DNA of 31,651 nucleotides from an uncultured bacterium. GTDB taxonomy: Bacteria; Hydrothermota; UBA3072. Positions 3,572 to 27,549 of the stretch are shown here, piece after piece (the stretch's first letter is position 1; the number at the start of each line of letters is the position of its first letter). The notes beneath the pieces were generated by a model. It was not told the DNA's origin. It saw nothing but the letters and a program-made list of their open reading frames with translations, and searched no databases. A program made the translations under genes and the position numbers. The stretch spans positions 1 through 31,651 of the forward strand of contig CAYRCN010000001.1 of NCBI GenBank assembly GCA_964422805.1, given 5' to 3'.

Positions 3572-4744
3572 ATGAGGCTATTTAAAGATATTCCCGGGAA
3601 CGTAAAAGCGCTGGGTTTTGTAAGCCTGTTTAACGATGCGGCAAGCGAAATGATTTATCCTCTATTGCCTATTTTTCTTACTTCTATTCTGGGGGTTGGC
3701 GCAGGAGCTTTGGGTATTATTGAAGGTATAGCGGAATCAACTGCTAGTCTTCTTAAGTTGTTTTCCGGGTGGTTTTCGGATAAGGTAAGGAAGAGAAAGG
3801 CTCTTATTTTAATTGGCTATTCACTCGCTGCGCTCGGAAGACCTATGATTGCTTTAAGCAGATACTGGTGGCATGTTGCGGTTATAAGGTTCGTAGATCG
3901 TTTGGGTAAAGGTGTGAGGACTTCTCCCAGGGATGCTCTTATTTCGCTGTCTACTCCTGAAGAGATAAAAGGAAAAGCTTTTAGTTTGCATAGAGCGATG
4001 GATCATGCTGGGGCAATAATAGGTCCGCTTTGCGCTATAATCCTCCTGAAATTTGGGATGAGTCTTAAGAGCTTGTTTGCCTGGGCTTTACTCCCCGGAA
4101 TTATAACTGTCTTTATTGTGGTTTTCTTTGTAAGAGAAAAGAAAATCGAAGCAAAAGCAAAGAGTGTAGATTTCAAGTTTTCTATACTCTCAAGAAATTT
4201 TAAAGCGTATCTCCTCGTGCTTATCTTTTTTACTCTTGGTAATTCATCCGATGCGTTCCTAATTTTGAAAGCGAAGGATGCCGGCGTTACAATTTTTCTT
4301 ATTCCGCTTCTCTGGATTGTTCTTCATTTTGTGAAGATGGCGACTTCGATTCCCGGAGGAGAGTGGTCAGATAAGGTTGGAAGACGAAAAGTGATAGTTA
4401 GCGGGTGGATCGTTTACGCGCTTATTTATCTTGGTTTTGGTTTCTCTTCCCGGATATTTCATATATGGATCTTATTTGCTCTTTACGGGATATACTTTGG
4501 GCTTACAGAGGGCGTGGAGAAAGCGTTTGTGAGCGATCTTGTGAGTAAGAAATTTCAGGGTACCGCTTTCGGCTTCTACCATCTGGCAGTTGGGGTCGCC
4601 GCATTTCCTTCAAGTGTAATTTTTGGTTTTATATGGCAAAAATTTGGTTCACTAGTGGCTTTTACGTATGGCTCAGCTCTTGCGGGTTTAGCTTCAATCT
4701 TGCTTTTTTCTTTGGTGAAGGAAAAGAAAAGGCAATTTCAATAG
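3572..4744 (+). CDS. MFS transporter (about 390 aa, about 12 TM)
   Basis: MFS motif A-like GWFSDKVRKRK and GEWSDKVGRRK; DRLGKGVRTSPRDALI. ATG 3572 is preferred over the ORF-track start 3488, which runs through the regulatory region. Confidence 0.9.
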   Translation: MRLFKDIPGNVKALGFVSLFNDAASEMIYPLLPIFLTSILGVGAGALGIIEGIAESTASLLKLFSGWFSDKVRKRKALILIGYSLAALGRPMIALSRYWWHVAVIRFVDRLGKGVRTSPRDALISLSTPEEIKGKAFSLHRAMDHAGAIIGPLCAIILLKFGMSLKSLFAWALLPGIITVFIVVFFVREKKIEAKAKSVDFKFSILSRNFKAYLLVLIFFTLGNSSDAFLILKAKDAGVTIFLIPLLWIVLHFVKMATSIPGGEWSDKVGRRKVIVSGWIVYALIYLGFGFSSRIFHIWILFALYGIYFGLTEGVEKAFVSDLVSKKFQGTAFGFYHLAVGVAAFPSSVIFGFIWQKFGSLVAFTYGSALAGLASILLFSLVKEKKRQFQ

Positions 4745-4794
4745 AAACAACTTCTTTTCTGTAAAACACTAAGCAGCTTTTTCAACACAGGGAC

Positions 4795-4822
4795 TTGACA
4801 AAATTAATCTGTTTGCAATACT
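4795..4822 (+). promoter_or_regulatory. Sigma70-type promoter for gcvT-H-PA (TTGACA-16-AATACT, preceded by TG)
   Basis: TTGACA at 4795-4800 and TGcAATACT at 4814-4822; the gcvT ATG is about 20 nt downstream of the -10. Confidence 0.55.
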
Positions 4823-4842
4823 AAATTTATTTATTAAATAAA

Positions 4843-5964
4843 ATGAAAGAAATAAAAACTCCTTTATACAGCAAACACCTCGAATTAAGTGCCTCTATGG
4901 TAAGCTTTGCCGATTACAGAATGCCGATGCAATATTCCTCTATATTTAATGAAGCAAAAGCCGTACGAAATTCTGCGGGTTTATTTGATGTGTCACATAT
5001 GGGAGAAATCGAGGTTACAGGGAGTGATGCAACAGAATTTATCAACAGCCTTGTAACATATGATATATCTTCGCTCAAGGACTTTCAGGCAAAATATACC
5101 GTGATGTTAAATGAAAAAGGGGGAATAATAGATGACATCCTGGTGTATAATCTTCCGGGGAGGTATTTTATAGTAGTTAATGCGTCAAACCGGGAAAAAG
5201 ATTTTAACTGGATCAGCGGGCACAAAAGCGGTAATGTAGAGGTACAAGATGTTAGCAAAGAAATTTTCCAGATTGCGTTACAGGGGCCGTTATCAGAAAA
5301 AATTATAAAGAGAGTCGTAAAATCCAGTCCTTCAGATTTAGAGTTTTACCATGCTAAAGAAGAAAAAATAGAGAATGGAAAAGTTTTACTTTCAAGAACA
5401 GGATATACGGGCGAGGATGGTTTCGAAATTTACGGAGAAAGCAGTGAAGCAGAAAAAATATGGGATAGAATCATGAAAGAGGGGAATCCATATGGCCTTT
5501 CTCCCTGTGGTTTAGGTGCGAGGGATTTACTTAGGCTGGAAATGGGATACTGCCTATACGGTAACGATATAACAGCGGAGACGACTCCTCTGGAAGCGAG
5601 CCTCTCTTGGGTTGTCTCTTTAGATAAGGAAAATTTTATAGGTAAAGAGGTTTTATTGAAACAAAAAAAAGAAGGAATAAAAAGGAAACTTGTTGGGATT
5701 TTGGTACCGGGCAAAAGAATTCCCAGGCATGGCTATAAAATATTGACAAAAGGAGAAAAGATCGGCACAATTACGAGCGGTAATTACTCCCCGAACGTTG
5801 GCTCTTCCATTGCAATGGGTTATATAAGTAAGCCGTATGATAAAGAGGGAACAAAGGTAGAAATTGAAATAAGGAATACGTTTACAGAGGGAGAAACTAT
5901 TAAGCTTCCGTTCTGGAAACGCGGAACAATCAAGAAGAAGAGTGTCGAAAAGAAAGACGACTGA
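4843..5964 (+). CDS. gcvT: Glycine cleavage system aminomethyltransferase T
   Basis: 373 aa; GLFDVSHMGEI, SRTGYTGEDGFEI, GLGARDLLRLEMG. Confidence 0.96.
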   Translation: MKEIKTPLYSKHLELSASMVSFADYRMPMQYSSIFNEAKAVRNSAGLFDVSHMGEIEVTGSDATEFINSLVTYDISSLKDFQAKYTVMLNEKGGIIDDILVYNLPGRYFIVVNASNREKDFNWISGHKSGNVEVQDVSKEIFQIALQGPLSEKIIKRVVKSSPSDLEFYHAKEEKIENGKVLLSRTGYTGEDGFEIYGESSEAEKIWDRIMKEGNPYGLSPCGLGARDLLRLEMGYCLYGNDITAETTPLEASLSWVVSLDKENFIGKEVLLKQKKEGIKRKLVGILVPGKRIPRHGYKILTKGEKIGTITSGNYSPNVGSSIAMGYISKPYDKEGTKVEIEIRNTFTEGETIKLPFWKRGTIKKKSVEKKDD

Positions 5965-5996: not shown

Positions 5997-6386
5997 ATGG
6001 AAATAAAAATACCGAAAGATCTTTTGTATACTGAAGATCACGAGTGGGCAAGAAAAGAAAACGGTGAAATTACCGAAGGCATAACGGATTTTGCGCAATC
6101 TGAACTTCAGGATATCGTCTTTATAGAATTGCCGGAAGTAGGTCAAGAAGTAGTCCAGGGAGATTCGATTGCTACAATTGAAGCCGTAAAAACGGTAACC
6201 GATCTTTACGCAGCTGTTTCCGGAGAAATTGTTAAGGTTAACAAAGAGCTGGAAAAGAAGCCGGAATTAATAAATAAGGATCCCTATGATACTGGTTGGA
6301 TAGTAAAAATAAAAGTATCTGACCCAGCCGAATTAGAAACCTTGCTTGCGCCTTCCGAATATAAAAAAGTAATTCAAGAAGAGTGA
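5997..6386 (+). CDS. gcvH: Glycine cleavage system H protein
   Basis: 129 aa; YTEDHEW, GITDFAQSELQDIVFIELP, lipoyl-Lys motif IEAVKTV, INKDPYDTGWI. Confidence 0.96.
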   Translation: MEIKIPKDLLYTEDHEWARKENGEITEGITDFAQSELQDIVFIELPEVGQEVVQGDSIATIEAVKTVTDLYAAVSGEIVKVNKELEKKPELINKDPYDTGWIVKIKVSDPAELETLLAPSEYKKVIQEE

Positions 6387-7702
6387 ATTTTATTCCAGTA
6401 AATAGAAATCAGCAGAAAGAAATGCTCAAAACCATAGGTAAGGGCATAGCTGATTTACTTTCAGCAATCCCTGAAGATTTACATTTAAAAAGACCCTTGA
6501 ATCTTCCTGCTCCGCTTTCCGAAATGGAAATAAAGGAGGAATCGCTTAAAACGGCCAAACTCAACAATGATTTAATAGTTTTTGCCGGCGGGGGAGTTTA
6601 TGATCACTATGTTCCGTCAGCTATAAGGCATCTTACCGGGAGAGCCGAGTTCTTTACCGCTTACACTCCTTATCAACCGGAGGTCTCTCAGGGTACTCTC
6701 CAGGCGATCTACGAATATCAATCGATGATTTGTGAATTAACAGGAATGGAAGTTTCAAACGCTTCTATTTACGACGGGGCAACAGCTCTCGCGGAAGCTA
6801 TATTTATGGCACTTGCAATAAACTCCGACAGAAACAAAGTAGTTGTCTCAGAAGGAATTAATCCTTATTACCTCGAAGTTATAAAAACATATCTAGGTGA
6901 AAATTATTTATTTGAAACTCTATCTCTAAAAGATGGTATTACAGATACGGAAGAGTTAGGGAAGATTGACGAGGGGACTGCTTGTATATCGATACAACAT
7001 CCTAATTTCCTGGGGAATTTTGAGGAAGTTGAAGAATTCGTAAAAGCAGCCCAAAATCTTGGTGTTATTGTAATATTAAATTTTGACCCGATATCTCTTG
7101 GGATACTAAAGACACCAGGGGAATATAGGGTAGATATTGCGACAGCAGAAGGACAGAGTCTGGGTATCCATATGAACCTTGGAGGGCCTTATCTCGGTAT
7201 ACTAACCTCGATGAAAAAACATATAAGAAATATGCCTGGAAGGATAGCCGGGAAGACAATAGACAAGAAAGGGAAAGAAGGTTATGTAATGGTTCTGCAG
7301 ACTCGCGAGCAACACATAAGAAGAGAAAAAGCTACGTCGAATATCTGTACAAACCAGCAACTTTGTGCCCTTTCGGCCGCAATATACCTTGCCCTGCACG
7401 GATGGGAAGGAATAAGAGAAACAGCAAACATAATAACTCAGAAAGCTCATTACCTCGCAGAAAAAATACAAAAGGCGGGGCTTGAACTTCCATATAAACA
7501 AAAATTTTTTAGAGAGTTTGTTGTTGAAATCCCAACGGGAGCAGAAAAAGCAATCAAAAAAGGAGTCAAAAACGGATACCTTGCAGGTATTAACCTTGGA
7601 AAATTCAAAAAAGAGTGGCAGAAACACCTTCTTGTTTCCGTAACGGAAAAAAGAACCAAAGGCGAGATGGACGAGCTCGTAAAAATTCTTTCGTCAAATT
7701 AA
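6383..7702 (+). CDS. gcvPA: Glycine dehydrogenase subunit 1 (alpha)
   Basis: 439 aa; TAYTPYQPEVSQGTLQAIYEYQS, NASIYDGATA, TREQHIRREKATSNICTNQ; GTG start overlaps the gcvH stop. Confidence 0.94.
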   Translation: MNFIPVNRNQQKEMLKTIGKGIADLLSAIPEDLHLKRPLNLPAPLSEMEIKEESLKTAKLNNDLIVFAGGGVYDHYVPSAIRHLTGRAEFFTAYTPYQPEVSQGTLQAIYEYQSMICELTGMEVSNASIYDGATALAEAIFMALAINSDRNKVVVSEGINPYYLEVIKTYLGENYLFETLSLKDGITDTEELGKIDEGTACISIQHPNFLGNFEEVEEFVKAAQNLGVIVILNFDPISLGILKTPGEYRVDIATAEGQSLGIHMNLGGPYLGILTSMKKHIRNMPGRIAGKTIDKKGKEGYVMVLQTREQHIRREKATSNICTNQQLCALSAAIYLALHGWEGIRETANIITQKAHYLAEKIQKAGLELPYKQKFFREFVVEIPTGAEKAIKKGVKNGYLAGINLGKFKKEWQKHLLVSVTEKRTKGEMDELVKILSSN

Positions 7703-7770
7703 TAAACTCCATTTTTGCCCATAGAGAATCTATCGCGGAAAAGTCACTAAAATTCAAAAATCAAATATTA

Positions 7771-8003
7771 GCACTTAGCCATGCGCTTTTGGCTGTTGGC
7801 TTTCAGCTTTTTAATAAAATTATATTGAGGCCAAAGACGAAAAGCCAATAAGCCGGGATGCGGCATTGTAAAAAAAGAAATAAGCAGTTAGAATTTAGAA
7901 TCCCAACCTACCCCAAAAAAATATTTTAACAGCCATATAATACAAAAAAGCTCATTCACTGTTTTTTAGCTAACAGCTAAAGGCTAAAAGCCAAAGGCAT
8001 AGT
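7771..8003. repeat. Cluster of period-7 arrays in both orientations
   Basis: 7771-7812: gcactta gccatgc gcttttg gctgttg gctttca gcttttt. Opposing arm at 7830-7861. 7888-7901: ttagaat x2. 7969-8003: gctaaca gctaaag gctaaaa gccaaag gcatagt. Confidence 0.8.
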
Positions 8004-8242: not shown

Positions 8243-9301
8243 ATGTTTCGCAAGAAAAAATTTATAATTTTATCTTCGTCCATTGTGTTGGTTATATTTC
8301 TTTTGTTCGCTTTCAGCCGCGGGAATGGAAAAAATGAGCAAAATCCTGCTGTAAAAGTAACAAAAGGAAATATCAGGGATGTGGCGGTAGCGCTCGGCAC
8401 TATTGAGGTTAAGTATGAGACGAGCGTGAAATCTACTTTTTCGGGAGTAATAAAAAAAGTGTTTGTCGAAATCGGAGATGTGGTGAAGAAAGGCGATCCT
8501 ATTTTTGAAATAGACCCTGCCCCCACTCCCTTTGAGCTCGCTTCCGTTAGAAAAGAAGTCAAGGTGGGGGAAGTTCGGCTGGAAAACGCGAAAAAGGACA
8601 TCGAGAGGAAAAAGGCTCTTTTCGAAAAAGGTTTGATATCGGATAAGGAATACGAGAATATGCAGCAAGAACTCCAGGAAGAGCAGTCAATTTATGATCT
8701 GGCAAAACAGAGGTTGGATTTAATGGAAAAAGGTAAGGCGAGAGTCGGAGGGACTGCTCTCGACGCTATAATTCGTTCCCCCGTATCCGGAACAATTCTT
8801 TCGAGAGAAGTCAGTATCGGGGATCCCGTCGTGCCGCTTACTTCTTATCAGCCGGGTACAGAACTTATGAGAATTGCAAGACTCCAAGATCTATTATTTA
8901 AAGGAGTTGTTGATGAAATCGATGTCGGAAGACTGGAAGAGGGAATGAAGGCAAAGATAACAGTAGGTGCTATCCCTGATGAAGAAGTTTATGGGATAAT
9001 AGATATTATCGCTCCAAAAGCCCGGAATAAGGAAGGAGCAACAGTCTTTGATCTTGAGATAATAGTTACTGAAAAGGGGAACAAGCCCCTGCGGGTTGGG
9101 TATTCTGCAACCGCTGATATTATTATAGATGAACGAACAGATGTACTTGTAATTCCTGAGGGTGCGGTAAAATTTGAAGAGGGAAAAACATTTGTTTATC
9201 TTGCAAACGGGGAAAAGAGAGAAGTCGAAATCGGATTATCTGACGGATTAAATATAGAAGTTGTTACCGGATTAAAAGAAGGAGATGAAATTAAAAGATG
9301 A
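8243..9301 (+). CDS. Efflux periplasmic adaptor (MacA/HlyD-family membrane fusion protein)
   Basis: 352 aa; N-terminal TM, lipoyl half-motifs (VEIGDVVKKGDPIFEI; IRSPVSGTILSREVSIGD), helical hairpin; AAGGAGG SD. Confidence 0.92.
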   Translation: MFRKKKFIILSSSIVLVIFLLFAFSRGNGKNEQNPAVKVTKGNIRDVAVALGTIEVKYETSVKSTFSGVIKKVFVEIGDVVKKGDPIFEIDPAPTPFELASVRKEVKVGEVRLENAKKDIERKKALFEKGLISDKEYENMQQELQEEQSIYDLAKQRLDLMEKGKARVGGTALDAIIRSPVSGTILSREVSIGDPVVPLTSYQPGTELMRIARLQDLLFKGVVDEIDVGRLEEGMKAKITVGAIPDEEVYGIIDIIAPKARNKEGATVFDLEIIVTEKGNKPLRVGYSATADIIIDERTDVLVIPEGAVKFEEGKTFVYLANGEKREVEIGLSDGLNIEVVTGLKEGDEIKR

Positions 9302-10533
9302 GAAGGGTAATAACTCAATTGGTTCAGGATTTTAGAGCCTACAAGATGAGGTTCCTGCTGGTAATATTCGGCGTCTCATGGGGAACTACCGCCATTATTC
9401 TTAACATGGCTTTCGGGGTCGGAGTCATGCATCAGGTAAAAAAAGGCCTGAGGGGACTGGGAGAACATATAGGAATACTCTGGCCCGGACAAACAAGTAT
9501 CCCATATAAGGGCCTCGGTATAGGCAGAAATATTAGATTTGTTCCGGAAGATGCGGAACTCTTAAAAGAAAGAATTGATGTCATTGAACTAGCCTCTCCA
9601 GAGTATATTCACTGGGGACAGCCGATAAAGTACGGAGAACTGCTCCGACAGGCAAAAGTCTGCGGAGTAAATCCTTCATATGGAATAATGAGGTCTATAG
9701 AAGCCGGGAAAGGGAGATTTCTTAATAAGCTGGATATTGAAAAGAGAAGAAGAGTTATTTTTCTGGGAAACGAAGAAAAAGAAAAAATATTCGGGCAAGA
9801 AGACGCTGTTGGCAAAAGAGTCCTTTTAAACGGCATCCCTTTTACGGTTATCGGCGTAATGAAGAAAAAAATACAGACAAATTCTTACTCCGGAAGCGAT
9901 CAGAATACAGTCTTTATTCCCTACTCGACATTTAAAACAATGTACGGCTGGCTGTACATAAATAATATGGTATATAAACCCATCTCTGCAGGTCTGTCAA
10001 AAGAAGCACAGAAAGAGATTAGCAGGGTTCTTGGAGAAAAATACAAATTCGACCCGGAAGATAAAGAAGCTCTCGGAACATGGGATGTGGCAGAGCAAGA
10101 ACAATTAATGAATAAAATGACCAAGGGGATTGAATTTTTTCTATCTATGGTTGGCGCTATGACTTTGCTTATTGCCGGAGCGGCTATTGCAAATATTATG
10201 TATTTCATAGTGGATGAGAGAACGAGAGAAATAGGAATTAAACGCTCCGTAGGAGCAAAAAAAAGCGATATCCTTCATCAATTCCTCCTGGAATCACTCT
10301 TACTTTCAACAATCGGCGGAATATCCGGACTTCTTTTTAGTTTTTCGATCGTATGGCTCTGCTCTTTTATACCTGAAACGGGCATATTTGAGTTCATGGG
10401 TAAGCCTACCATGTCCTACGAGATACCCATAATAACGGTTATCGTTCTTCTTGTCATTTCGCTTTTCTCTGGATATTTCCCCGCAAAGAAAGCGGCAAAC
10501 CTAAAACCAGTGGAGTGTTTGCGCTATGAGTAA
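9298..10533 (+). CDS. ABC transporter permease (MacB/FtsX type)
   Basis: 411 aa; TM1, periplasmic MacB-PCD region, GIANIMY-like segment and ERTREIGIKRSVGAKK, C-terminal PAKKAANLKPVECLRYE. Confidence 0.92.
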   Translation: MRRVITQLVQDFRAYKMRFLLVIFGVSWGTTAIILNMAFGVGVMHQVKKGLRGLGEHIGILWPGQTSIPYKGLGIGRNIRFVPEDAELLKERIDVIELASPEYIHWGQPIKYGELLRQAKVCGVNPSYGIMRSIEAGKGRFLNKLDIEKRRRVIFLGNEEKEKIFGQEDAVGKRVLLNGIPFTVIGVMKKKIQTNSYSGSDQNTVFIPYSTFKTMYGWLYINNMVYKPISAGLSKEAQKEISRVLGEKYKFDPEDKEALGTWDVAEQEQLMNKMTKGIEFFLSMVGAMTLLIAGAAIANIMYFIVDERTREIGIKRSVGAKKSDILHQFLLESLLLSTIGGISGLLFSFSIVWLCSFIPETGIFEFMGKPTMSYEIPIITVIVLLVISLFSGYFPAKKAANLKPVECLRYE

Positions 10534-12452: not shown

Positions 12453-13391
12453 ATGAAAACAGGATTAAAAAAAGAGCCTCTTATGTTTCTAGCTCTACTG
12501 CTTGCTGCGGCTCCCTTAAGTGTAAAATGCTGTCACAGATATGAAATGGAGTTTAGAAAAACTTACGAAGTAAAACCAGGAACCAAAATCACGGTATCCA
12601 ACAGTAACGGAAAAATCGAGATAGAGAAATGGGATAGAAAAGAGGTGGAAGTTTTTGCCTCTATTGGCTCAGATAAAAGTATGGAAGAATTAACTAAAGC
12701 TAAAATCGAGGTTTCCTTAGACGAAAACATGGAAATCGCGACGATTTATTCGGGGGAAGACAAAAAAGAATCGAAGAAAAAGGAGAAAGACTTTGGCGTC
12801 TGGGATTTTATCAAATGTTTAGTGAAGGGCGAATATTCGGGAAATAAAATTAACGTAGACTACGAAATCAAGGTCCCGGATTATGTTGTTGTTTCTGAGG
12901 TGAGAACTTCAAATGGGGGAATAGATTTACAGGGAACAAAAGGACCTTCAGAGTTGATCACAACTAATGGTAAAATTGAAGTTGAAAACGTCGAGGGTGA
13001 CATAGAAGCAAAAAGCACTAATGGGAAAATAAAAATTGAGAACGTAAATGGTTTCGTGTCAGGGAGAACAACAAACGGCAAAATTGAAGTAAAAAGCGAA
13101 GGAATAAAAGATTTGACAACAACAAACGGTGGCATTGAAGCGGAAATGAAGAGTATAAAAGAAAACATCAAAATCAGAACAACAAACGGCTCAATCAAAC
13201 TCGGCTTGCCTTCTTCTCTTAATGCAATTCTGGAATTAAGCACCACTAATGGCGGAATAGATTTAAACGACATTACCCTGGAGGTTACCTCAAAGCATAA
13301 GAATAAATACATTAAAGGCAAGATGGGGAAAGGCGGACCGGAAATAAATGCGAGCACCACAAACGGAGGAATAAAATTAAGAAAATTGTAA
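12453..13391 (+). CDS. DUF4097-family beta-strand repeat (adhesin-like) exported protein
   Basis: 312 aa; N-terminal signal; 7-8 (S/T)TNG(K/G/S)I repeats; ends INASTTNGGIKLRKL. Confidence 0.8.
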   Translation: MKTGLKKEPLMFLALLLAAAPLSVKCCHRYEMEFRKTYEVKPGTKITVSNSNGKIEIEKWDRKEVEVFASIGSDKSMEELTKAKIEVSLDENMEIATIYSGEDKKESKKKEKDFGVWDFIKCLVKGEYSGNKINVDYEIKVPDYVVVSEVRTSNGGIDLQGTKGPSELITTNGKIEVENVEGDIEAKSTNGKIKIENVNGFVSGRTTNGKIEVKSEGIKDLTTTNGGIEAEMKSIKENIKIRTTNGSIKLGLPSSLNAILELSTTNGGIDLNDITLEVTSKHKNKYIKGKMGKGGPEINASTTNGGIKLRKL

Positions 13392-13536: not shown

Positions 13537-13564
13537 TTGACAAATTCTACATTTGTAGTACAGT
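13537..13564 (+). promoter_or_regulatory. Sigma70-type promoter for the DUF5916-blaI-blaR' unit (TTGACA-16-TACAGT)
   Basis: TTGACA at 13537-13542 and TACAGT at 13559-13564; overlapped by the BlaI operator. Confidence 0.65.
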
Positions 13565-13581
13565 ATACTACAAATGTAGAA
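13545..13581. promoter_or_regulatory. Double BlaI/MecI/CopY operator: 16-bp perfect inverted repeat containing two TACA-NN-TGTA boxes
   Basis: TTCTACATTTGTAGTA-cagta-TACTACAAATGTAGAA; boxes at 13548-13557 and 13569-13578, 21 bp apart. Confidence 0.85.
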
Positions 13582-13598: not shown

Positions 13599-15872
13599 TT
13601 GAAAGATTCCATTGTGGTTAAGTGTAAGAGTTTATTTTTTGCAAAGCTTTCCCGGTTAAGAATTTTCGTTTTGTCCATGATGTTTGCTGCCTGGTTTGTA
13701 TCTGCTTCTAACGGGGAAGCCTCGAATGACGAGAAAATTCCTTGCAGGGTTCCCAGGGTCAATTCGGAAGTAAGTGTAGACGGTTATCTTGACGAAGAAG
13801 TATGGGATCAGGCAGTTAAAATTGATGCGAATGTCGAGGTTAGTCCCGGAGAGAATATTCCCGCTCCTGTCAAAACCGAAGTATATATTGCTTACGACAA
13901 CTCCAATATATATGTTGCGTTCAAAGCCCATGACCCTGACCCCTCGCAAATCAGAGCTAATTTATGTGATAGGGATAATATTTGGGATGATGACTGGGTT
14001 CTTATTCTGTTCGATACCTTCAACGACGAGAGTAGATGCTATGATTTTGGGTGCAATCCGCTGGGGATTCAGGCAGATATAATTGAAAGCACCTCGGGCG
14101 GAGGAGGTTCTTGGGATGCTATCTGGGAATCTGATGGGCGCATTACTGAAGAAGGGTATATAGTTGAGATGGCTATACCGTTCAGTTCTTTAAAATTTCC
14201 CCGCAAAGAAGGTGATCAGATATGGGGCTTTGATGCGGTGAGAAGCTATCCCCGAAACGTACGACATCATATAGGCGCATTTCCAAGAGACAGAAATAAC
14301 AATTGTTATTTCTGCCAATTGGAAAAAATGACGGGTTTTAACGATGTAATACCGGGAAGAGACATTGAACTTGTTCCTACGTTTACTTCCCTTGTTAAGC
14401 AAGAAAGAGAAAATTGGTCTTCGGGACCATTTGGTACGGAAGATTTCTATGGAATTGGCCTCACTTCGAGCTGGGGGCTCACTACCAATCTTAAGCTGAG
14501 CGCAACAATTAATCCCGATTTCTCGACCATTGAATCTGACGTAATACAAGTAGATATAAATAATCCGTTCGAACTATGGTATCCTGAAAAACGTCCGTTT
14601 TTTCTCGAAGGAGACGATTTTTTTGAAACAAGTATCGATGCAGTCCATACAAGAATTTTAGCCGATCCAAATGTTGGAGTCAAATTGATCGGGAAAGAAG
14701 GTAAAAACACGATAGGTTTTTTTTCTGCTCAGGATGCTGTAACAAACTTAGTTATCCCCTCTCTTGAAGGGTCTACTTCTGATACCATAGAGGGGAAATC
14801 TTATGGTACGGTTATTAGATACCTGCGGGACTTCGGGCAGTCATCGAATATAGGCTTACTAATAACCGACAGAGAAGGAGGGAATTATTACAATCGGATT
14901 CTGGGGCTTGATGGCATCTTACGTATCACAAAAAGTGATCACATTAGATGGCAAGTACTTGGTTCAAGGACCTTATATCCGGATGATGTTGCATCGCAAC
15001 ACGAGCAATCTACCGGTGCATTCGGAGGAAATGGCGTTTCTGGATATTATTCTCATGATAACAAAAGTTATAATTTCTTCGGAATATATGAACAAATGAG
15101 TCCGGATTTCCGCGCAGATCTTGGTTTCGAAAATCAAACGGGGTACAGATATGGCGAAGTGGGAGGAAATTACATATGGAGAGCGGGACCGGAGCACTGG
15201 TTTACATGGATAAATATTTACCTTGGCGCAGATTTGGGAAAAGATTACAGCGGCAACACAGCGCGTAAAGAACTAAAAGCCAATGTTAACTACAACGGTC
15301 CTCTTCAGTCTTACTGTGGTGTTTATGGGCAGCTCTCAAAAGACCGCTATGAGGAACAAGAATTTAAAACAAGTTATTTGAATTATTGGATTGGGGGACA
15401 ACCTGCGAAATGGTGCAGTTTCAACTTATGGAGTGTATTCGGCGACAGAATAGATTATGACAATACTCGTCCAGGGAAAGGGTTGCAGCTGGGCGTCAGC
15501 ACGACTTTTAAAATCGGATCTCGCTTGTCGGTCAGCCTCGACCATTATTATGAACATTTAGATGTAAACGAAGGGAGGCTTTACACTGCCAACAGGGAAT
15601 ATATAAAATTAATGTATCATTTCAATGAGAGAATCTTTATACGAACGATTTTTCAATTTGCCGACTATAATAAAGACCCCGACCTTTACATCGATTATGT
15701 AGAACAAGAAGAACAGGAACTTCTAAGCCAGATTCTTCTTTCATATAAAATTAATCCGCATACCGCCTTATATTTAGGATATACAGATAATTATTACGGA
15801 GATTACGATACAGATATAATACAAACCGATAGAAGTCTTTTCGCAAAGATCGGCTACGCTTGGATGTTTTAG
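13599..15872 (+). CDS. CBM9/DOMON-like sugar-binding domain plus DUF5916 outer-membrane beta-barrel protein
   Basis: 757 aa; VDGYLDEEVW, TEVYIAYD..IYVAF, NPDFSTIESD, LWYPEKRPFFLEG; amphipathic C-terminal strands ending KIGYAWMF; TTG start with AGGAGG. Family recognised by eye. Confidence 0.72.
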   Translation: MKDSIVVKCKSLFFAKLSRLRIFVLSMMFAAWFVSASNGEASNDEKIPCRVPRVNSEVSVDGYLDEEVWDQAVKIDANVEVSPGENIPAPVKTEVYIAYDNSNIYVAFKAHDPDPSQIRANLCDRDNIWDDDWVLILFDTFNDESRCYDFGCNPLGIQADIIESTSGGGGSWDAIWESDGRITEEGYIVEMAIPFSSLKFPRKEGDQIWGFDAVRSYPRNVRHHIGAFPRDRNNNCYFCQLEKMTGFNDVIPGRDIELVPTFTSLVKQERENWSSGPFGTEDFYGIGLTSSWGLTTNLKLSATINPDFSTIESDVIQVDINNPFELWYPEKRPFFLEGDDFFETSIDAVHTRILADPNVGVKLIGKEGKNTIGFFSAQDAVTNLVIPSLEGSTSDTIEGKSYGTVIRYLRDFGQSSNIGLLITDREGGNYYNRILGLDGILRITKSDHIRWQVLGSRTLYPDDVASQHEQSTGAFGGNGVSGYYSHDNKSYNFFGIYEQMSPDFRADLGFENQTGYRYGEVGGNYIWRAGPEHWFTWINIYLGADLGKDYSGNTARKELKANVNYNGPLQSYCGVYGQLSKDRYEEQEFKTSYLNYWIGGQPAKWCSFNLWSVFGDRIDYDNTRPGKGLQLGVSTTFKIGSRLSVSLDHYYEHLDVNEGRLYTANREYIKLMYHFNERIFIRTIFQFADYNKDPDLYIDYVEQEEQELLSQILLSYKINPHTALYLGYTDNYYGDYDTDIIQTDRSLFAKIGYAWMF

Positions 15873-15889
15873 TATAAAAAGGAGGGCAT

Positions 15890-16267
15890 ACGGGTTTAAC
15901 AAAAGCCGAATGGCAAATTATGAATGCTTTATGGAAAAATTACCCGGCATCTGTCAGGGATGTAATCGGGCATCTTGATGGAGATGTGGATTGGGCATAT
16001 ACGACAGTCAAGACAATGCTGGACAGGTTGGTTATAAAGGGAATACTTAAAGTGAACAAAAACCGTAACGTGAGCATCTACGAACCAATCGTTTCTCAGG
16101 AAAAAACGCGTCAGGCAGCTATAAAATCTTTTGTCAACCAGGCTTTCGACGGGGCAATAGGCACTTTAATGCATTATATCGTTGCCGAAGAAGAGCTATC
16201 AAAAAAAGAAAGAGAAGAATTGGTACGTATTCTAAAAGAGGAAGAAAAAAATGATCGAACAAATTAA
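15890..16267 (+). CDS. blaI: BlaI/MecI/CopY family repressor (probable start ACG 15890; first ATG 15920)
   Basis: LTKAEWQIMNALW, WAYTTVKTMLDRLVIKG, FVNQAFDGAIGTLMHY..EELS. The conserved N-terminal helix lies upstream of the first ATG. Confidence 0.88.
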   Translation, partial: TGLTKAEWQIMNALWKNYPASVRDVIGHLDGDVDWAYTTVKTMLDRLVIKGILKVNKNRNVSIYEPIVSQEKTRQAAIKSFVNQAFDGAIGTLMHYIVAEEELSKKEREELVRILKEEEKNDRTN

Positions 16268-16409
16268 TGCACTAAGTATAGCCTGGTGGAGCTGGATGAG
16301 TGGAATGTTTTGGCAGGTAAGCCTTCTTATAATCCTCATAAGCGGTATCGGCTTACTCCTACGCAGGTGGGTATGGCCTCAGGTTGGGTATGCTTTGTGG
16401 TTCAATTAA
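16251..16409 (+). pseudogene. 5' remnant of a BlaR1/M56-family sensor-protease
   Basis: 52 codons: MIEQINALSIAWWSWMSGMFWQVSLLIILISGIGLLLRRWVWPQVGYALWFN*. Overlaps the blaI end by 17 nt. Matches the first TM/RYALW region of M56 proteins; no HExxH. Confidence 0.75.
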
Positions 16410-16429: not shown

Positions 16430-16471
16430 TTCTGTATTCTGTCTTCTAAATTCTTAGTTCTATTTTCTATA
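16430..16471. repeat. Six TTCT-phased heptamers
   Basis: ttctgta ttctgtc ttctaaa ttcttag ttctatt ttctata; the last unit contains the aldolase stop codon. Confidence 0.85.
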
Positions 16472-17423
16472 TCAAATCAAGACACTTTTCGTAGAAATCT
16501 CTGTAGTCCGTCTTTGATGGATCTTCATTGTTGAGTTTAAGAAACTCCATTGCATCTCTGGGATGTAAATTCAATATCCCGGCTACCATATAAGGAATAT
16601 TATATCCCCATGTAATTTCTTTCTGTAGGGGCATGATATGTTTTCCTATAACTTCCAGGATTGGCCTTATATCAAATTTCGGATTTTTGAGAAAAGACAT
16701 CAAAAGCTCCAGAGGGCAGTTACCTGCGGCTCTTCCGATTCCATAAAGCGTACCATCTACGTAGTTCGCTCCCCTTATTATACCCTGTATTGTATTGGCA
16801 AAGGCGAGCTGCTGATGATTATGACAGTGTACACCTATTTCCCTGTCTTTTATGTATTTTTTGTACTTATCATAATAAAAATCTATATCTTCACTATATA
16901 GAGCCCCAAAACTGTCTACAATATATACCGCAATTGTTTTTGTTTCTTCTTGTATTTGTTGTAACGCTTCGTCCAACTCCCAATCCACTGCGTGTGAAAT
17001 TGCCATAACGTTTATTGTCGCTTCATAACCGTTGTCGACCGCAGCATTAGCAGTTTTTATTGCCGTATCGATGTCTTTGACATAAGTAGCAACTCTGATG
17101 ATATCTACGGGGCTTCCTTCTCTTGGCATTATATCGTCTAATGTGCTCTTATGTGCATCCATCATCACTGAAAGTTTAGTTTCGGTTTCGATACCATCTA
17201 CAATTTTTTTAAGGTCTTCGTCGTTGCAGAATCTCCAGGGACCGTATTCATCCGTAGAAAACATCTCCTTACTGTTTCTATAGCCAAGCTCGACAATATC
17301 TACACCCGCTTCACATACGGCTTTGTAAACAGCCCTTACAGTTTCGAACGGGAACTTTGAATTATTCATCAGCCCCCCGTCTCTTATAGTACAATCAACA
17401 ACTGTTATTTCCGGTCTATACAT
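16467..17423 (-). CDS. HMGL-like / DRE-TIM metallolyase (aldolase catalytic domain; 4-hydroxy-2-oxovalerate aldolase / pyruvate carboxyltransferase-like)
   Basis: 318 aa; DCTIRDGG, metal-binding HCHN, DGTLYGIGRAAGN; AAGGAG SD. Confidence 0.82.
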   Translation of the reverse strand: MYRPEITVVDCTIRDGGLMNNSKFPFETVRAVYKAVCEAGVDIVELGYRNSKEMFSTDEYGPWRFCNDEDLKKIVDGIETETKLSVMMDAHKSTLDDIMPREGSPVDIIRVATYVKDIDTAIKTANAAVDNGYEATINVMAISHAVDWELDEALQQIQEETKTIAVYIVDSFGALYSEDIDFYYDKYKKYIKDREIGVHCHNHQQLAFANTIQGIIRGANYVDGTLYGIGRAAGNCPLELLMSFLKNPKFDIRPILEVIGKHIMPLQKEITWGYNIPYMVAGILNLHPRDAMEFLKLNNEDPSKTDYRDFYEKCLDLI

Positions 17424-17719: not shown

Positions 17720-17929
17720 GTGGATTTACCTATGGAATATCCCAAATGTCAAAAATGTAATTTTGGCGTGCTTATCCCCCTATCGGATTACGGACAGGGT
17801 GGTGCATCAATACCATACAAAGCATGGGTATGCACAAATCCGGATTGTCATTTTCACATCCGAATAGACAACGGAGAGCTCAGTTATGGTACGGGTATCG
17901 GTGTAAGCCAAAAGCAACAAAAGAGTTAA
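17720..17929 (+). CDS. Small putative Zn-ribbon protein (CxxC-N24-CxxxxC)
   Basis: 69 aa; CQKC...LIPLSDYG...YKAWVCTNPDC; strong GGAGGAGG SD before GTG (ATG 17732 is an alternative start). Confidence 0.75.
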   Translation: MDLPMEYPKCQKCNFGVLIPLSDYGQGGASIPYKAWVCTNPDCHFHIRIDNGELSYGTGIGVSQKQQKS

Positions 17930-19585: not shown

Positions 19586-20029
19586 TTGGGAAAAGATAAA
19601 GAAGAAAAAAAAAGCAATAAGGATATAGAGAAATTAAAAGACGATATCTCTCTTGAGGAAGCGGAGCCTAAAAGGAAGAGACTTCTGCAAGTATTAGTAT
19701 TATTCTTGACAGGTGGAATTATAATAACTTTAGGAATCTACTTGAGGTGGGACAAACGGATAATTGGTATAGGGGTTTTTCTTTTTGGTCTTGTATCTCA
19801 AGGCTGGTCGAGTCTGGTTTCTCTTTTGGGAGGAGTTCCTGTTGTTGGGAGTATTATTGTAAGATTCCTGGCTCTTCCTTTACTTTTCCTTGTTAATGGT
19901 ATTGGGAATCTTTTAGCTTTTATAGCGATTAAAATGGGTTATAAGAAAGAAATAATGGATACAAAGTTGCTTGCCTGGACTTTTGCGGGCGGGCTTTTAA
20001 TAGGATTCATAATAGGAGGATTAATATGA
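19586..20029 (+). CDS. Hypothetical membrane protein (3-4 TM)
   Basis: 147 aa; charged N-terminus followed by hydrophobic helices; TTG start; its TGA overlaps the next ATG. Confidence 0.7.
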   Translation: MGKDKEEKKSNKDIEKLKDDISLEEAEPKRKRLLQVLVLFLTGGIIITLGIYLRWDKRIIGIGVFLFGLVSQGWSSLVSLLGGVPVVGSIIVRFLALPLLFLVNGIGNLLAFIAIKMGYKKEIMDTKLLAWTFAGGLLIGFIIGGLI

Positions 20030-22824
20030 TTTTGTTGCTTTTCCTAACATCTCAATATCTCTTTGAGCAAAACAAAATTCAATACACTTCGCATGAATGG
20101 ATGATGCATAAAACAGAACATTTTCACATATATTACTATAAGAGTGAGAAAGTTTTAGTACCTTTTGCGGCAGATGTTTTAGAAGAAAGTTATAATAGAC
20201 TGAGAAAGAGATTTAATTATAAAGAGAGAAAAAACGAGGATGCGATCCCTGTAATACTGTACAAATCTCATCCGGACTTTCAGGGAACTAACGTAATTCT
20301 TGATAGAATACCTGAGGGCGTGGGAGGTTTCGCAGAGCTTTTCAAGAATCGTATCGTGATTCCCTTTAACGGTTCTTACTCTGACTTCAGGCATGTTCTC
20401 AACCATGAGTTAGTGCACATTTTCCAATACCGTATTCTTTACGGTACAGGAGTAAACGCTATTAAAAGGGCAATAACTTCCAGTATTCCTCTCTGGTTTA
20501 TTGAAGGTATGGCAGAATTGGAATCGCTGGGATGGGATCAGAGTGCCGAAACATATATAAGAGACGCTGTTTTAAATAATAAGCTCTTTACTATACCTCA
20601 ATTGAGTAGAATTGGCGGATATCCTATATATAAAGAAGGGCAATCGGTTCTATACTATATAAGAGAGAAATATGGCGATGAAAAAATAGGTGAAATAATG
20701 AGTAAACTTAAAATCACTAATTCTTTTGAAGGAGCTATTGTTAGCGTTCTGGGTATAGATATGGATCGTTTGAACTCTGAATGGACTAAAGAATTAAAGA
20801 AAGAGTATTGGCCAATTATTGAAGGGAAACAGTATATAAGTGAAATAGCAAGGCCTATTGTAACACATAGTGGTTTTGAGGATCTTTATAACTATGCTCC
20901 CGCTGTATCTCCCTCGGGTGATAAAATAGTATATTTTACAGATGAAGTGGGTGAAGTTCAAATCAGGCTTGTTTCTTCTCTAACTAAAGAAGATTTAGGA
21001 TTACTGGTCAAAGGCGGGCGTTCTGCCATGTATGAGTCTTTACATCTGATGGAGGGACACGTTAGCTTTTCACCCGATGGAGAAAGAATTATTTTTCCTG
21101 CTATGGTAAAGGGTAAAGACGTGCTTTATATTTTTGATATAAGAGAAAGAAGGATATTGAAAAAAATCGATTTGCAATTAGACCTGATAAGATGGCCCGA
21201 ATTCTCTCCCGACGGTACAAGAATCGCATTTGTTGGTTTAAAAAATGGGGCTTCCGATATTTACGTGTACGACCTTCAAAGCGGAACCCTTGTAAATGTA
21301 ACACATGACAGATATTCAGATAATTATCCAGCCTGGAAAGGAGATTCTTTGTTTTTCGTGAGTGACAGACCGGAGACAGAACAATGGGATTATAACACAA
21401 ACATGTTATACCTGACCGATTTAAAAGGAAATATAAAAAAGTACCTCTCATTTGGCAAACAGATTATAGCTCCTAAAGTTTATAATTCTGACGTTTACTT
21501 TATTTCTTACAGAGACGGAGGTAAAAATTTGTATGTATATAAATCCGATTCGTCGGTCGTGAAACAACTTACGGATCTTATCGGGTCAGTAGACGACTTT
21601 TCGATCTCGAATGCCGGACATATAGCTGTATCTATATATTCGGATCTCGGCTGGGATATATATTTTATTGATTCTGTAGAAGAGCTGACAGAAAAAGAAC
21701 CAAATCCTCCCAGGGAATTAAAAAAAGAAGAAGAAATTCCTGTAATTCTTGCGGAAGAAGATAAAATGAAAAAAGACAGCAGAGCTCCTTTGCATTTCGG
21801 AGTTGACTACTTTACAGGAACTCTTGGCTATTATTCAGATTACGGTGTTTATGGATATTTGGCATTAGGGATGAGTGATATGCTTGGGAATCATCAGGTT
21901 TACGCCTTATTCAATAATACAGATCTTACCGAGAGTAGTTTCTACATTATGTATTTATATCTGAAGCGGAGAGTCGACCTTGCTGCATCTTTGGTAAGAC
22001 AGAAAGGTGTTTTTTCAGTAAGCGAAGGTTACCTGGCCGGAGATATTTGGAACTTAAACACAGATGTTATATTTCCTATTGATAGGTTCAAAAGAATCGA
22101 AATGGGTTTAGGTTCTTACTATCTTGCAGGGAATTTACTTGTACCGCTTGAAGGTTATCCTGGCTGGTATGTGGAAACACGCTCGGACCTACCAGGGTTT
22201 GGTTTACTGGGAAACATATCTCTGATTCAAGATAATAGCACCTGGGGTTATATGAATCCTGTAAAAGGGTTCAGGGGCAGAATTTCTTACAGTAGACCGC
22301 TTCTTGCAGGTGAGAATCTTTGGGATATTAGTACTGTCTCGACCGATCTTAGAAAGTACTTTTATTTAAGCAGTGACTATAGCTTTGCCTTACGTTTTTT
22401 GATAATACACAGTTGGGGTAGAGATAGCTGGGATTTCGGAACTGTTGGAATCGGGGGAGGGCGTTCGGTTAGAGGATACGATTATAATACTCAAATCGGG
22501 AGCACCGCGGGCCTATTAAGTCTGGAATTGAGAATGCCTTTGATAAAGAGGTTGGATCTTGGGTTTCCTCCTATATCGTTGGGAGGTATTGAAGGAGCAC
22601 TCTTCACTGATATAGGAGTAGCGACTGATGATTACAAGGCATTACGAATCTTGACCACTGAAAATAATTGGATAAAGCTCGCCGATCCTATTATGTCATT
22701 TGGTGTGGAGTTCAGGCTCAACCTTGGAATAACGATTTTAAACTTTGATATCTCGAGAAGGACCGATTTAAACACGATCTTACCGGACTTCCATTACGAC
22801 CTTCACTTAGGGTTGCCGTTTTAG
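20026..22824 (+). CDS. Peptidase-MA-like domain + TolB/PD40 beta-propeller + Omp85/BamA-type barrel (WD40-Omp85 type)
   Basis: 932 aa; HELVH (20404-20418) with WFIEGMAE; repeats PAVSPSG, VSFSPDG, PEFSPDG; loop-6 VRGY (22468-22479); terminal LGLPF. Confidence 0.82.
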   Translation: MILLLFLTSQYLFEQNKIQYTSHEWMMHKTEHFHIYYYKSEKVLVPFAADVLEESYNRLRKRFNYKERKNEDAIPVILYKSHPDFQGTNVILDRIPEGVGGFAELFKNRIVIPFNGSYSDFRHVLNHELVHIFQYRILYGTGVNAIKRAITSSIPLWFIEGMAELESLGWDQSAETYIRDAVLNNKLFTIPQLSRIGGYPIYKEGQSVLYYIREKYGDEKIGEIMSKLKITNSFEGAIVSVLGIDMDRLNSEWTKELKKEYWPIIEGKQYISEIARPIVTHSGFEDLYNYAPAVSPSGDKIVYFTDEVGEVQIRLVSSLTKEDLGLLVKGGRSAMYESLHLMEGHVSFSPDGERIIFPAMVKGKDVLYIFDIRERRILKKIDLQLDLIRWPEFSPDGTRIAFVGLKNGASDIYVYDLQSGTLVNVTHDRYSDNYPAWKGDSLFFVSDRPETEQWDYNTNMLYLTDLKGNIKKYLSFGKQIIAPKVYNSDVYFISYRDGGKNLYVYKSDSSVVKQLTDLIGSVDDFSISNAGHIAVSIYSDLGWDIYFIDSVEELTEKEPNPPRELKKEEEIPVILAEEDKMKKDSRAPLHFGVDYFTGTLGYYSDYGVYGYLALGMSDMLGNHQVYALFNNTDLTESSFYIMYLYLKRRVDLAASLVRQKGVFSVSEGYLAGDIWNLNTDVIFPIDRFKRIEMGLGSYYLAGNLLVPLEGYPGWYVETRSDLPGFGLLGNISLIQDNSTWGYMNPVKGFRGRISYSRPLLAGENLWDISTVSTDLRKYFYLSSDYSFALRFLIIHSWGRDSWDFGTVGIGGGRSVRGYDYNTQIGSTAGLLSLELRMPLIKRLDLGFPPISLGGIEGALFTDIGVATDDYKALRILTTENNWIKLADPIMSFGVEFRLNLGITILNFDISRRTDLNTILPDFHYDLHLGLPF

Positions 22825-26481: not shown

Positions 26482-27549
26482 CTAACCGATGATGTCTTCA
26501 ATTTCTCCTAAAAGCCAATTGATTTCTTCGACAGTCAAATCTCCCATATGCGCAATTCTAAATGTTTTCTCTTTTAAGTTGCCGTATCCGTTAGAAATGT
26601 AAGCTCCTCTCTTGGATAGTTCCTCGTTAAGACCTTTAATTGAAATATCTTTGGTGTTATTTATGCAGGTTACTGTGGGCGAAAGATTGTTTTCATCTGC
26701 AAAAAGCGAAAAGTTTTCTCTTGCCCAATTTTGTACTATAGAAGCCATCTCGGAGTGTCTTTTAAAACGGTTTTCTACACCTTCTTGATTTACTATTTTC
26801 TCCAGTTGATAATTAAGAGCGGCTATCAAATTAAGAGCAGCTGTTATAGATGGCTGTTTTGCCTTATCCCAGTATTTTTTATATTGCAAGAAGTCAAAAT
26901 AGTATCCTTTGTCTTCCGCCTCGGCGGAACGCTTCATTGCTTTTTCGCTTACAGATGCAATTGCCAGTCCCGGAGGGAGAGCAAAACACTTTTGTGACGA
27001 AGCAGCGACATAATCGATACCCCAATCGTCGACTCTTATCTCTGCCCCCGCCATCGAAGACACAGCATCGACACATAAAATTACATCAGGATATTTGCTT
27101 ACTACTTCTGCAACTTCTTTAAGGGGATTCATGACACCGGTTGATGTCTCATTATGTGTTATAAATACGGTGTCAAATTTTCCGGTTTTTAGTTTTTCTT
27201 CTATATCTTCGGGGGAAATACCTTTTCCCCATTCGTATTCTAAAACTTCAAAATCTTTTTGACAGCTTTTTGATATTTCTGCCCATCTTTTACCGAAAGC
27301 TCCGCATACCGAATGAAGAGCTCCTTTTTTTACGCAATTCCTAACCGCCGCTTCCATCAAACCGGTTCCCGAACAGGTTCCTATAATAATAAAATTATCC
27401 GTAAAAAGAACTTTTTGAAGTTTTGTTATGGTTTGATCCATCAATTCCGAGGTTTCCGGCATTCTGTGACCGAACATTGGGAAATCCATCGCTTTTCTAA
27501 CGTCTTCCCTGACTTCTGTCGGGCCGGGGATAAATAATTTCCTGTACAT
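26482..27549 (-). CDS. Class-V PLP aminotransferase (alanine-glyoxylate / serine-pyruvate family)
   Basis: 355 aa; LFIPGPTEV, FGHR, THNETSTGVMN, DAVSS, PLP-Lys SSQKCFALPPG, FRIAHMG. Confidence 0.9.
   Translation of the reverse strand: MYRKLFIPGPTEVREDVRKAMDFPMFGHRMPETSELMDQTITKLQKVLFTDNFIIIGTCSGTGLMEAAVRNCVKKGALHSVCGAFGKRWAEISKSCQKDFEVLEYEWGKGISPEDIEEKLKTGKFDTVFITHNETSTGVMNPLKEVAEVVSKYPDVILCVDAVSSMAGAEIRVDDWGIDYVAASSQKCFALPPGLAIASVSEKAMKRSAEAEDKGYYFDFLQYKKYWDKAKQPSITAALNLIAALNYQLEKIVNQEGVENRFKRHSEMASIVQNWARENFSLFADENNLSPTVTCINNTKDISIKGLNEELSKRGAYISNGYGNLKEKTFRIAHMGDLTVEEINWLLGEIEDIIG

Follow-up and report, generated by a model that had tools for sequence, protein, structure and literature searches.

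The repressors MecI and BlaI, whose cleavage site is N101-F102 in the dimerisation domain, and the sensor-proteases MecR1 and BlaR1 make up the paired systems mecI-mecR1 and blaI-blaR1 of Staphylococcus aureus. A weak start codon can also set the level of a regulator, as in E. coli infC, the gene of initiation factor 3 (IF3), in which an AUU that is conserved across orthologues sets the gene's own expression by feedback. In MRSA (strains of S. aureus that resist methicillin), nonsense and ribosome-binding-site mutations of mecI as well as mecR1 deletions (delta-mecR1) have been described, and derepression of the regulated gene is the proposed outcome (PMC3149077). Here, we analysed a BlaI-like gene of an uncultured bacterium (GTDB lineage Bacteria; Hydrothermota; UBA3072) on contig CAYRCN010000001.1 of assembly GCA_964422805.1; the whole stretch of 31,651 nucleotides (nt) that was analysed is called the window below. 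In this gene, an ACG codon stands at the position of the ancestral ATG start, and the partner gene blaR is reduced to a stump of 52 codons. On balance, we lean towards the view that ACG is a strong hypomorphic or near-null start-codon lesion of an orphan blaI, which would derepress the operon to which the gene belongs. ACG as an unusual start codon is not yet proven.

An ACG codon at the start of blaI

The initial annotation had described an AGGAGG-gcat-ACG arrangement leading into the BlaI frame, with a TAA at 15875 barring upstream starts, and the sequence is as described. The region contains the following features:

15870-15872, + strand: TAG stop codon of the upstream DUF5916 gene
15875-15877, + strand: TAA in frame with blaI
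15880-15885, + strand: Shine-Dalgarno (SD) sequence AGGAGG, 4 nt 5' of ACG; relatives have GGAGG or GGGGG, 4 nt and ATG at the matching place
15886-15889, + strand: spacer gcat between AGGAGG and ACG
15890-15892, + strand: ACG at the ancestral start codon position (T>C at 15891), placed by alignment to the start codons of relatives
15920-15922, + strand: ATG of Met11, the earliest canonical in-frame start, within helix 1; the start taken by gene callers, giving a form of 115 amino acids (aa)
15890-16267, + strand: blaI-like open reading frame (ORF) of 125 codons from ACG to TAA at 16265-16267; Pfam PF03965

The ACG is followed by GGT TTA ACA AAA GCC GAA TGG CAA ATT and the ATG at 15920, and the translation from the in-frame TAA, *KGGH-TGLTKAEWQIMNALW..., runs to the TAA at 16265-16267. 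No ATG, GTG or TTG occurs from the in-frame TAA up to ATG 15920, and for this reason the ORF listing gives only the 115-aa form, which is also the form held in a public protein database (entry P0001). Other ways of starting the gene upstream could be ruled out. The in-frame TAA at 15875 precludes an upstream blaI start, an other-frame start at ATA 15888 reads ATA CGG GTT TAA, and readthrough from or fusion to the DUF5916 gene is impossible because that gene is in another frame and ends at the TAG at 15870.

The SD sequence has an ordinary distance to the ACG. GGAGG plus 4 nt likewise stands 5' of the start of the DUF5916 gene (TTG 13599) and of the class-V aminotransferase gene, a likeness already pointed out in the initial annotation, and GGAGG with 4-5 nt is the modal arrangement: among the 10 genes of the window with a complete GGAGG, 8 show it. 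There is no special mRNA structure around the blaI start (minimum free energy -16.7 kcal/mol, z = 0.69 versus shuffles), and no unusual tRNA is present within the window.

The DNA of the blaI start was read in approximately 20 distinct alleles from metagenome-assembled genomes (MAGs) of GTDB and from JGI contigs, which have 75-89% aa identity. The BlaI proteins of the relatives are 117-125 aa long, those of the closest ones 117-122 aa, and all begin with M(G/D/S)LTKAEWQIM, their Met being aligned to the ACG codon. An ATG is aligned to ACG in L001, L002, L004-L008, L019, L021-L023 and L025-L031, and the non-ATG exceptions are TTG in L024 and GTG in L032, the latter with the weaker SD sequence GAAGG; all other alleles have GGAGG (or GGGGG), 4 nt and ATG at exactly this blaI codon. 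Since every relative has ATG there, apart from one GTG and one TTG, the ACG of the window lineage is, as judged from these alignments, a derived T>C transition confined to one lineage, which bears out the ATG>ACG change that had been suspected. The nearest named BlaI homologues (approximately 50-56% identity) come from MAGs of Planctomycetota.

The C at 15891 is real. It is found in near-identical Logan contigs of 11 runs (X1-X4, X6, X7, X9, X10, X11, X13 and X15), which are independently assembled marsh, salt-marsh and marine-sediment metagenomes from several studies (2015, 2019, 2025), and in three further JGI assemblies besides the window (L033, identical to L020, L034 and L035). An ATG variant at 96% identity or more was found in none of 12 runs. 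Hence, the assembly error that the initial annotation had raised for this position is rejected. The ACG haplotypes differ by 0-3 single-nucleotide polymorphisms (SNPs) per 1.5 kb, corresponding to a within-lineage diversity of approximately 0.2%, and the sole polymorphism within blaI of the ACG lineage is 16101 A>G (E71G, a variable position), which marks a second haplotype in the 2025 runs. Contigs that match the window without any difference across blaI depart strongly from it in short blocks on the flanks, for example L033 at window 12921-13358, where a block in the DUF4097 gene is approximately 16% divergent, or L035 and run X10 at 15511-15671, with 13 SNPs in 160 nt at the 3' end of the DUF5916 gene. 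Such blocks point to strains having exchanged DNA by homologous recombination, or to assemblies that mix strains.

A second T>C was found at 16256 (codon 123, 16256-16258), where the stop codon TGA of the relatives became CGA, adding the residues RTN. In the blaR frame, which overlaps here, the change is silent (ATT>ATC), a related strain has T at this position, and the change is probably harmless. A strain approximately 94% identical with an intact blaR is covered only from 16195 on, i.e. downstream of the start codon. Pairwise ratios of non-synonymous to synonymous substitution rates (dN/dS) of blaI are 0.045-0.11. A branch-specific dN/dS tells nothing further, since dS has reached saturation against every relative (0.9-2.1) and the within-lineage diversity is approximately 0.2%.

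The repressor, its N-terminus and its operon

Its profile match, predicted fold and operator motif make the product of the ORF a repressor of the BlaI/MecI/CopY family. The match to Pfam PF03965 (Penicillinase_R) has 110.7 bits (cut-off 22.6) and spans the whole profile (positions 1-115 of 115), which falls on residues 3-117 if ACG is taken as residue 1. Sequences of MecI and BlaI crystal structures match the product with E-values of 3e-17 to 4e-13, and MecI (1sd6/1okr) residues 8-121 align to its residues 3-116 in the same count. The AlphaFold model predicts helices at residues 5-16, 22-27 and 37-49, strands at 53-58 and 61-66, and helices at 70-85, 91-100 and 105-123, with confidence values (pLDDT) of 80-95 in the N-terminal domain and 52-71 in the C-terminal part. 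The model thus has the expected N-terminal winged helix, i.e. three helices and a beta-hairpin wing, followed by predicted C-terminal dimerisation helices. The translation contains no frameshift or internal stop, and the family-invariant residues are all retained.

Pfam profile, MecI/BlaI alignment, predicted helix 1 and the tryptophan W8, which is invariant in 48 homologues, all extend upstream of Met11, and therefore the full N-terminus needs the ACG position. These lines agree with the conserved first BlaI helix that had been proposed to begin at ACG. It had also been claimed that a start at ATG 15920 deletes helix 1. According to the model, such a start would remove half of this helix (residues 5-16) including W8, not the whole of it; in homologues, Met11 itself is an almost invariant residue inside the protein. 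Given the length and common beginning of the relatives, it is not the 115-aa form that is conserved. The Asn-Phe pair of the staphylococcal cleavage site is absent, as LVLNFVEKE of MecI aligns to LMHYIVAEE here and to LMHHLVAEE in relatives, so that a proteolytic cleavage site of this clade, if any, would appear to differ from the staphylococcal N-F.

The gene is the second of a co-linear operon, whose promoter region and first gene are as follows:

13537-13564, + strand: predicted sigma-70-type promoter of the DUF5916-blaI operon, TTGACA (13537-13542), 16 nt, TACAGT (13559-13564); 10 of 12 matches in the scan
13545-13581, strand not applicable: putative BlaI operator, formed by an inverted repeat of 16 nt whose arms, 13545-13560 and 13566-13581, are 100% complementary
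13599-15872, + strand: DUF5916/CBM9 gene, first of the operon, 757 aa, with a GGAGG-tagt-TTG start; Pfam CBM9_1 and DUF5916

The inverted repeat holds two TACAnnTGTA dyads, CTACATTTGTAG (13547-13558) and CTACAAATGTAG (13568-13579), and it overlaps the region of the transcription start as well as the -35/-10 spacer. BlaI, MecI and CopY have operators with the motif TACA/TGTA, typically two for each promoter (PMC7253601). In the 31.6-kb window, no exact CTACANNTGTAG sites other than these two occur (chance expectation 0.37, sites with up to one mismatch being counted); a one-mismatch operator-like site lies at 6172. The region was compared in L001, L004-L007, L022, L024-L027, L029 and L032, and the operator element is kept in at least 11 related loci, i.e. 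in all relatives covering it. Seven alleles have the promoter TTGACA-16-TATAAT and an eighth has TTGATA-16-TATAAT, the -10 element is TACAAT in two alleles and CATATT in one, and TACAGT is confined to the window lineage. In L032, both inner half-sites carry symmetric changes (TGCA...TGCA) and the large palindrome is kept.

The DUF5916 stop codon ends 17 nt 5' of the ACG, which leaves no room for a separate blaI promoter. We infer that both genes share one transcript, and because two BlaI-type dyads overlap its promoter, BlaI would repress this DUF5916-blaI(-blaR) transcript and hence act as an autorepressor.

Loss of the sensor and decay of the module

The presence of an adjacent intact M56 sensor gene is the mark of an inducible system of the BlaI/MecI type. 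In the window, such a gene is absent:

16251-16409, + strand: remnant of a blaR1/mecR1-like M56 sensor-protease gene, comprising its first 52 codons (first transmembrane segment, TM1), then a stop
16467-17423, - strand: convergent HMGL-like gene (Pfam HMGL-like), syntenic with L001 and L002; it abuts the blaR stump and marks the right-hand border of the deletion

The loss of the sensor, which the initial annotation had claimed, is clear from a comparison with intact blaR, which encodes 869 aa in L001, 863 aa in L002 and 820 aa in L026, with a Peptidase_M56 domain in L001 and L002. BLAST homology of the remnant to blaR of L001 and L002 ends at approximately 16402, and in related strains in runs X4 and X15 blaR-like sequence continues beyond this point. 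Because the sensor is missing, the locus is no longer an inducible BlaI-BlaR system.

Across lineages, blaR is cut or replaced at five junctions, after approximately 4, 17, 47, approximately 50 and 52 codons, the last one being that of the window. It is cut after 17 codons in L004, L007, L021 and L025, after 47 codons in L006 and L032, and after approximately 50 codons in L008 and L027, and it is replaced after approximately 4 codons by an unrelated ORF in L005, L019 and L022. The replacement ORF (5185-5766 in L005) encodes 128-193 aa. Its initial few codons are those of blaR (MIEQ/MVEQ), a transmembrane segment and coiled-coil-like sequence follow, and the product could serve BlaI as another kind of partner.

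The orphan blaI genes have a dN/dS of 0.04-0.09 at a dS of 0.09-0.37 within the 17-codon group, of 0.064 at a dS of 0.86 between L008 and L027, and of 0.067 between L006 and L032. Such strong purifying selection in alleles that diverged after a shared truncation indicates that orphan BlaI is still useful in sister lineages, where it works without an adjacent sensor, or perhaps with one encoded elsewhere. This bears on the earlier proposal that ACG relieves a permanent repression after sensor loss. The sensor is indeed lost, but this loss alone does not make blaI useless or harmful, since at least four other lineages, in which blaR was lost at different junctions, kept ATG and strong purifying selection on blaI.

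The module has gone altogether in a strain that is approximately 90% identical at the 3' end of the DUF5916 gene. Its contigs join 15871 to 16463/16468, so that blaI and the blaR stump are wholly absent. The evidence comes from the Logan contigs X1 record 2 and X3 record 15, one of which has 109 unrelated nt between the DUF5916 gene and the HMGL-like gene. Contigs with loose ends at window 16419 and 16463 were seen in runs X2, X3 and X4. In several relatives, a short motif (..TCTTTGTGTCTT..GTGTCTTTGTGTGAGA..) lies just 3' of the blaR deletion junction (L004, approximately 5055-5110; L007, approximately 5420-5467). The TCTTTGTGTCTT/GTGTCTTTGTGTGAGA motif may represent a small repeat element or else a terminator common to these relatives, and it could relate to the recurrent deletions.

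Neighbouring genes

The DUF5916 gene and the gene order are common to L001, L002, L032 and L033. The syntenic series comprises OEP, DUF4097, DUF5916/CBM9, blaI, blaR, the convergent HMGL-like gene, a small ORF and comM. In L001 only, a gene for an S9-family peptidase (4006-5949) lies between the DUF5916 gene and blaI and a 289-aa gene (8965-9834) follows blaR; neither gene occurs in the window or in L002, pointing to a variable operon content. The small ORF of the window (17720-17929) encodes 69 aa with two CxxC pairs (zinc-ribbon-like) and no Pfam match, and its position upstream of comM is kept in L001 and L002. At 20026-22824, the window encodes a 932-aa protein of unusual architecture, with Peptidase_MA_2, PD40/DPPIV-type beta-propeller repeats and a C-terminal Omp85-like domain. 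The SHMT encoded at 27549-28811 shares 82-86% identity with proteins named candidate division WOR-3, and a WOR-3 bacterium living in salt-marsh sediment is the probable source of the window. The aminotransferase gene mentioned above is placed as follows:

26482-27549, - strand: class-V aminotransferase gene, with GGAGG and 4 nt before the start

A probable crippled repressor start or a possible weak functional start

In the reading that we favour, the T>C change hit the ancestral ATG of an orphan blaI, whose partner blaR has been reduced to 52 codons. With ACG in the P-site and an intact SD sequence and spacing, BlaI synthesis would fall to approximately 1% of the ATG level or less, if the E. 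coli case can serve as analogy. There, a chloramphenicol acetyltransferase (CAT) reporter yielded 48-78 units with ACG versus 7314-7838 with AUG (0.7-1%), and ACG was the weakest single-base AUG variant measured, since CUG, AUA, AUU and AUC gave 238-906 units (PMC3643588). A survey of 64 codons in E. coli also placed ACG in the class with 0.01-1% of AUG, and the ACG-initiated product mostly starts with Met (10.1101/063800). The small amount of BlaI would then result in constitutive derepression of the DUF5916-blaI operon, and blaI would represent a strong hypomorph or a pseudogene in the making, at one of the steps by which the module decays in this clade.

In a toy steady-state model, a start efficiency of x0.01 lowers the repressor 2.6-20-fold, the drop being buffered because BlaI represses its own mRNA, and operon transcription is predicted to rise 5-38-fold, to 15-100% of its maximum. 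Hence, derepression of the DUF5916 gene would be the main phenotype to be expected whether ACG is a lesion or a weak start.

A lesion is consistent with the decay of the BlaI-BlaR module elsewhere in the clade, with its five blaR junctions and a near relative without blaI, and with two more signals that are altered only in the window lineage, namely the -10 element (TACAGT versus TATAAT) and the blaI stop codon (TGA to CGA). Judged as a pseudogene, blaI has lost its canonical start and its reading frame is undisrupted. Several points weigh against a lesion. A null allele should be costly, as sister orphan blaI genes are strongly selected (dN/dS 0.04-0.09, dS up to 0.86), yet the ACG allele is fixed in samples spanning 10 years (2015-2025). 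Furthermore, the SD sequence, its spacing, the invariant residues and the operator are all perfectly kept, and the blaI changes unique to the window, 8 synonymous to 3 non-synonymous, give no sign of relaxed constraint. Moreover, the efficiency figures for ACG come from E. coli and may not hold in this phylum or with coupling to the DUF5916 stop codon 17 nt upstream, and our search found neither an RNA run holding the locus nor ribosome-profiling data. Regarding the kept features, it must be mentioned that the ACG haplotypes are nearly identical; almost the whole window branch probably predates the ACG mutation, which by this comparison appears to be young, and the intact ORF and the low dN/dS are therefore silent on present function.

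The same features could tentatively be read the other way, i.e. ACG may be a functional, selectively retained start of low efficiency that resets the autoregulated set-point upward in a lineage without BlaR induction, with BlaI still working. This is a possible but clearly less probable explanation, and still a little more doubtful is its strongest form, in which ACG would be a genuine selected bacterial start and the ATG>ACG change, buffered by autoregulation, would keep BlaI and raise DUF5916 many-fold, replacing the BlaR-dependent induction. A strong SD sequence at the modal 4-nt spacing argues for a functional start, as do the mostly Met-started protein that E. coli makes from ACG (10.1101/063800), the modelled loss of only 2.6-20-fold of the repressor with a 100-fold weaker start, the clear selection on orphan blaI in sister lineages, and an intact ORF, operator and set of invariant residues in an allele that is fixed, geographically spread and found on mosaic flanks. 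Milder weakening of the start (TTG in L024, GTG with a weak SD sequence in L032) likewise occurs only in blaR-less alleles. However, non-ATG starts in 3 of approximately 13 orphan alleles versus 0 of 3 alleles with intact blaR are not statistically meaningful, the intactness of the gene is uninformative given the little divergence since the change, and a near relative dispenses with blaI. ACG is also the weakest single-base AUG variant measured (PMC3643588), and it is unique to one lineage among the approximately 20 alleles and conserved in no other, in the manner not expected of a genuine non-canonical start.

Two further explanations carry little weight. Automated gene calling implies that the real product is an N-truncated BlaI of 115-116 aa, started internally at ATG 15920 (or ATT 15917). 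This ATG is the first canonical in-frame start, and in an AT-rich region that is not unusually structured (fold z-score 0.69) an SD-independent initiation is conceivable, but no SD-like purine run precedes it, the relatives have 117-125 aa and share MGLTKAEWQIM, the Pfam profile begins at residue 3, and the truncated form would lose W8, which is invariant, together with half of helix 1 in the winged-helix domain, all of which make this reading improbable. The least credible assumption, with hardly any chance of being right, is that sequencing or assembly produced the C at 15891 as an artefact or that C-to-U RNA editing corrects it. The artefact is refuted by the same base in the 11 independent runs and three further JGI assemblies, and to our knowledge there is no established mechanism of C-to-U mRNA editing in bacteria.

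Implications

If our favoured reading of a crippled start is correct, the locus would provide a well-documented natural start-codon lesion in a transcriptional autorepressor that is fixed in an environmental population. The clade as a whole shows every stage in the decay of a BlaI-BlaR module. It represents a natural experiment on what becomes of a proteolysis-induced repressor after the loss of its sensor: the repressor is selected in several lineages, weakened in one and deleted in another. If ACG is used, it would be a rare natural ACG start in bacteria, and the operon would be tuned via the start codon of its own repressor. Since a target promoter and operator could be located (13537-13581), the idea of derepression becomes concrete and testable. 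The locus ties signalling of the BlaI/BlaR type to a CBM9/DUF5916 envelope protein in candidate division WOR-3, and there a role in beta-lactam resistance is unlikely. Regarding annotation, gene callers silently give the truncated 115-aa BlaI, which would be wrong whether ACG is a lesion or a start.

Comparison with known systems

The E. coli reporters with ACG resemble blaI in having the codon positioned by an SD sequence, and there the initiator tRNA reads it to give protein that starts with Met, in small though detectable quantity (10.1101/063800; PMC3643588). Unlike this natural gene, they are engineered constructs, and no natural ACG-dependent bacterial gene was shown in these studies. 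If ACG serves as start, blaI would resemble infC as a regulator with its own weak non-canonical start that sets its level by feedback. However, only one lineage has the ACG, and any feedback would be transcriptional via the operator, whereas in infC it acts through start-codon discrimination. The locus also resembles pseudogenes that arose by loss of the start codon, in that a single transition removes the start after the partner gene was deleted and a near relative is without the whole gene. In contrast to such pseudogenes, blaI has no frameshifts or stops, its dN/dS is not raised and its SD sequence is intact, and it cannot yet be called dead.

The closest parallel is the staphylococcal pair of mecI-mecR1, on the staphylococcal cassette chromosome mec (SCCmec), and blaI-blaR1 in S. 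aureus, which belong to the same families of repressors and sensor-proteases. In both settings, the sensor gene is deleted down and TACA/TGTA operators are found two per promoter, and the repressor that point mutations disable or weaken in S. aureus would here be crippled by one as well. The locus described here differs in its regulated gene, which encodes a CBM9/DUF5916 protein and not a beta-lactamase or penicillin-binding protein, and in its host, an uncultured sediment bacterium that probably belongs to candidate division WOR-3. Unlike in mecI, the proposed lesion hits the start codon itself, and no insertion sequence is visible at the junction. Finally, in contrast to the decay of SCCmec, sister lineages of this bacterium keep their sensorless repressor under purifying selection.

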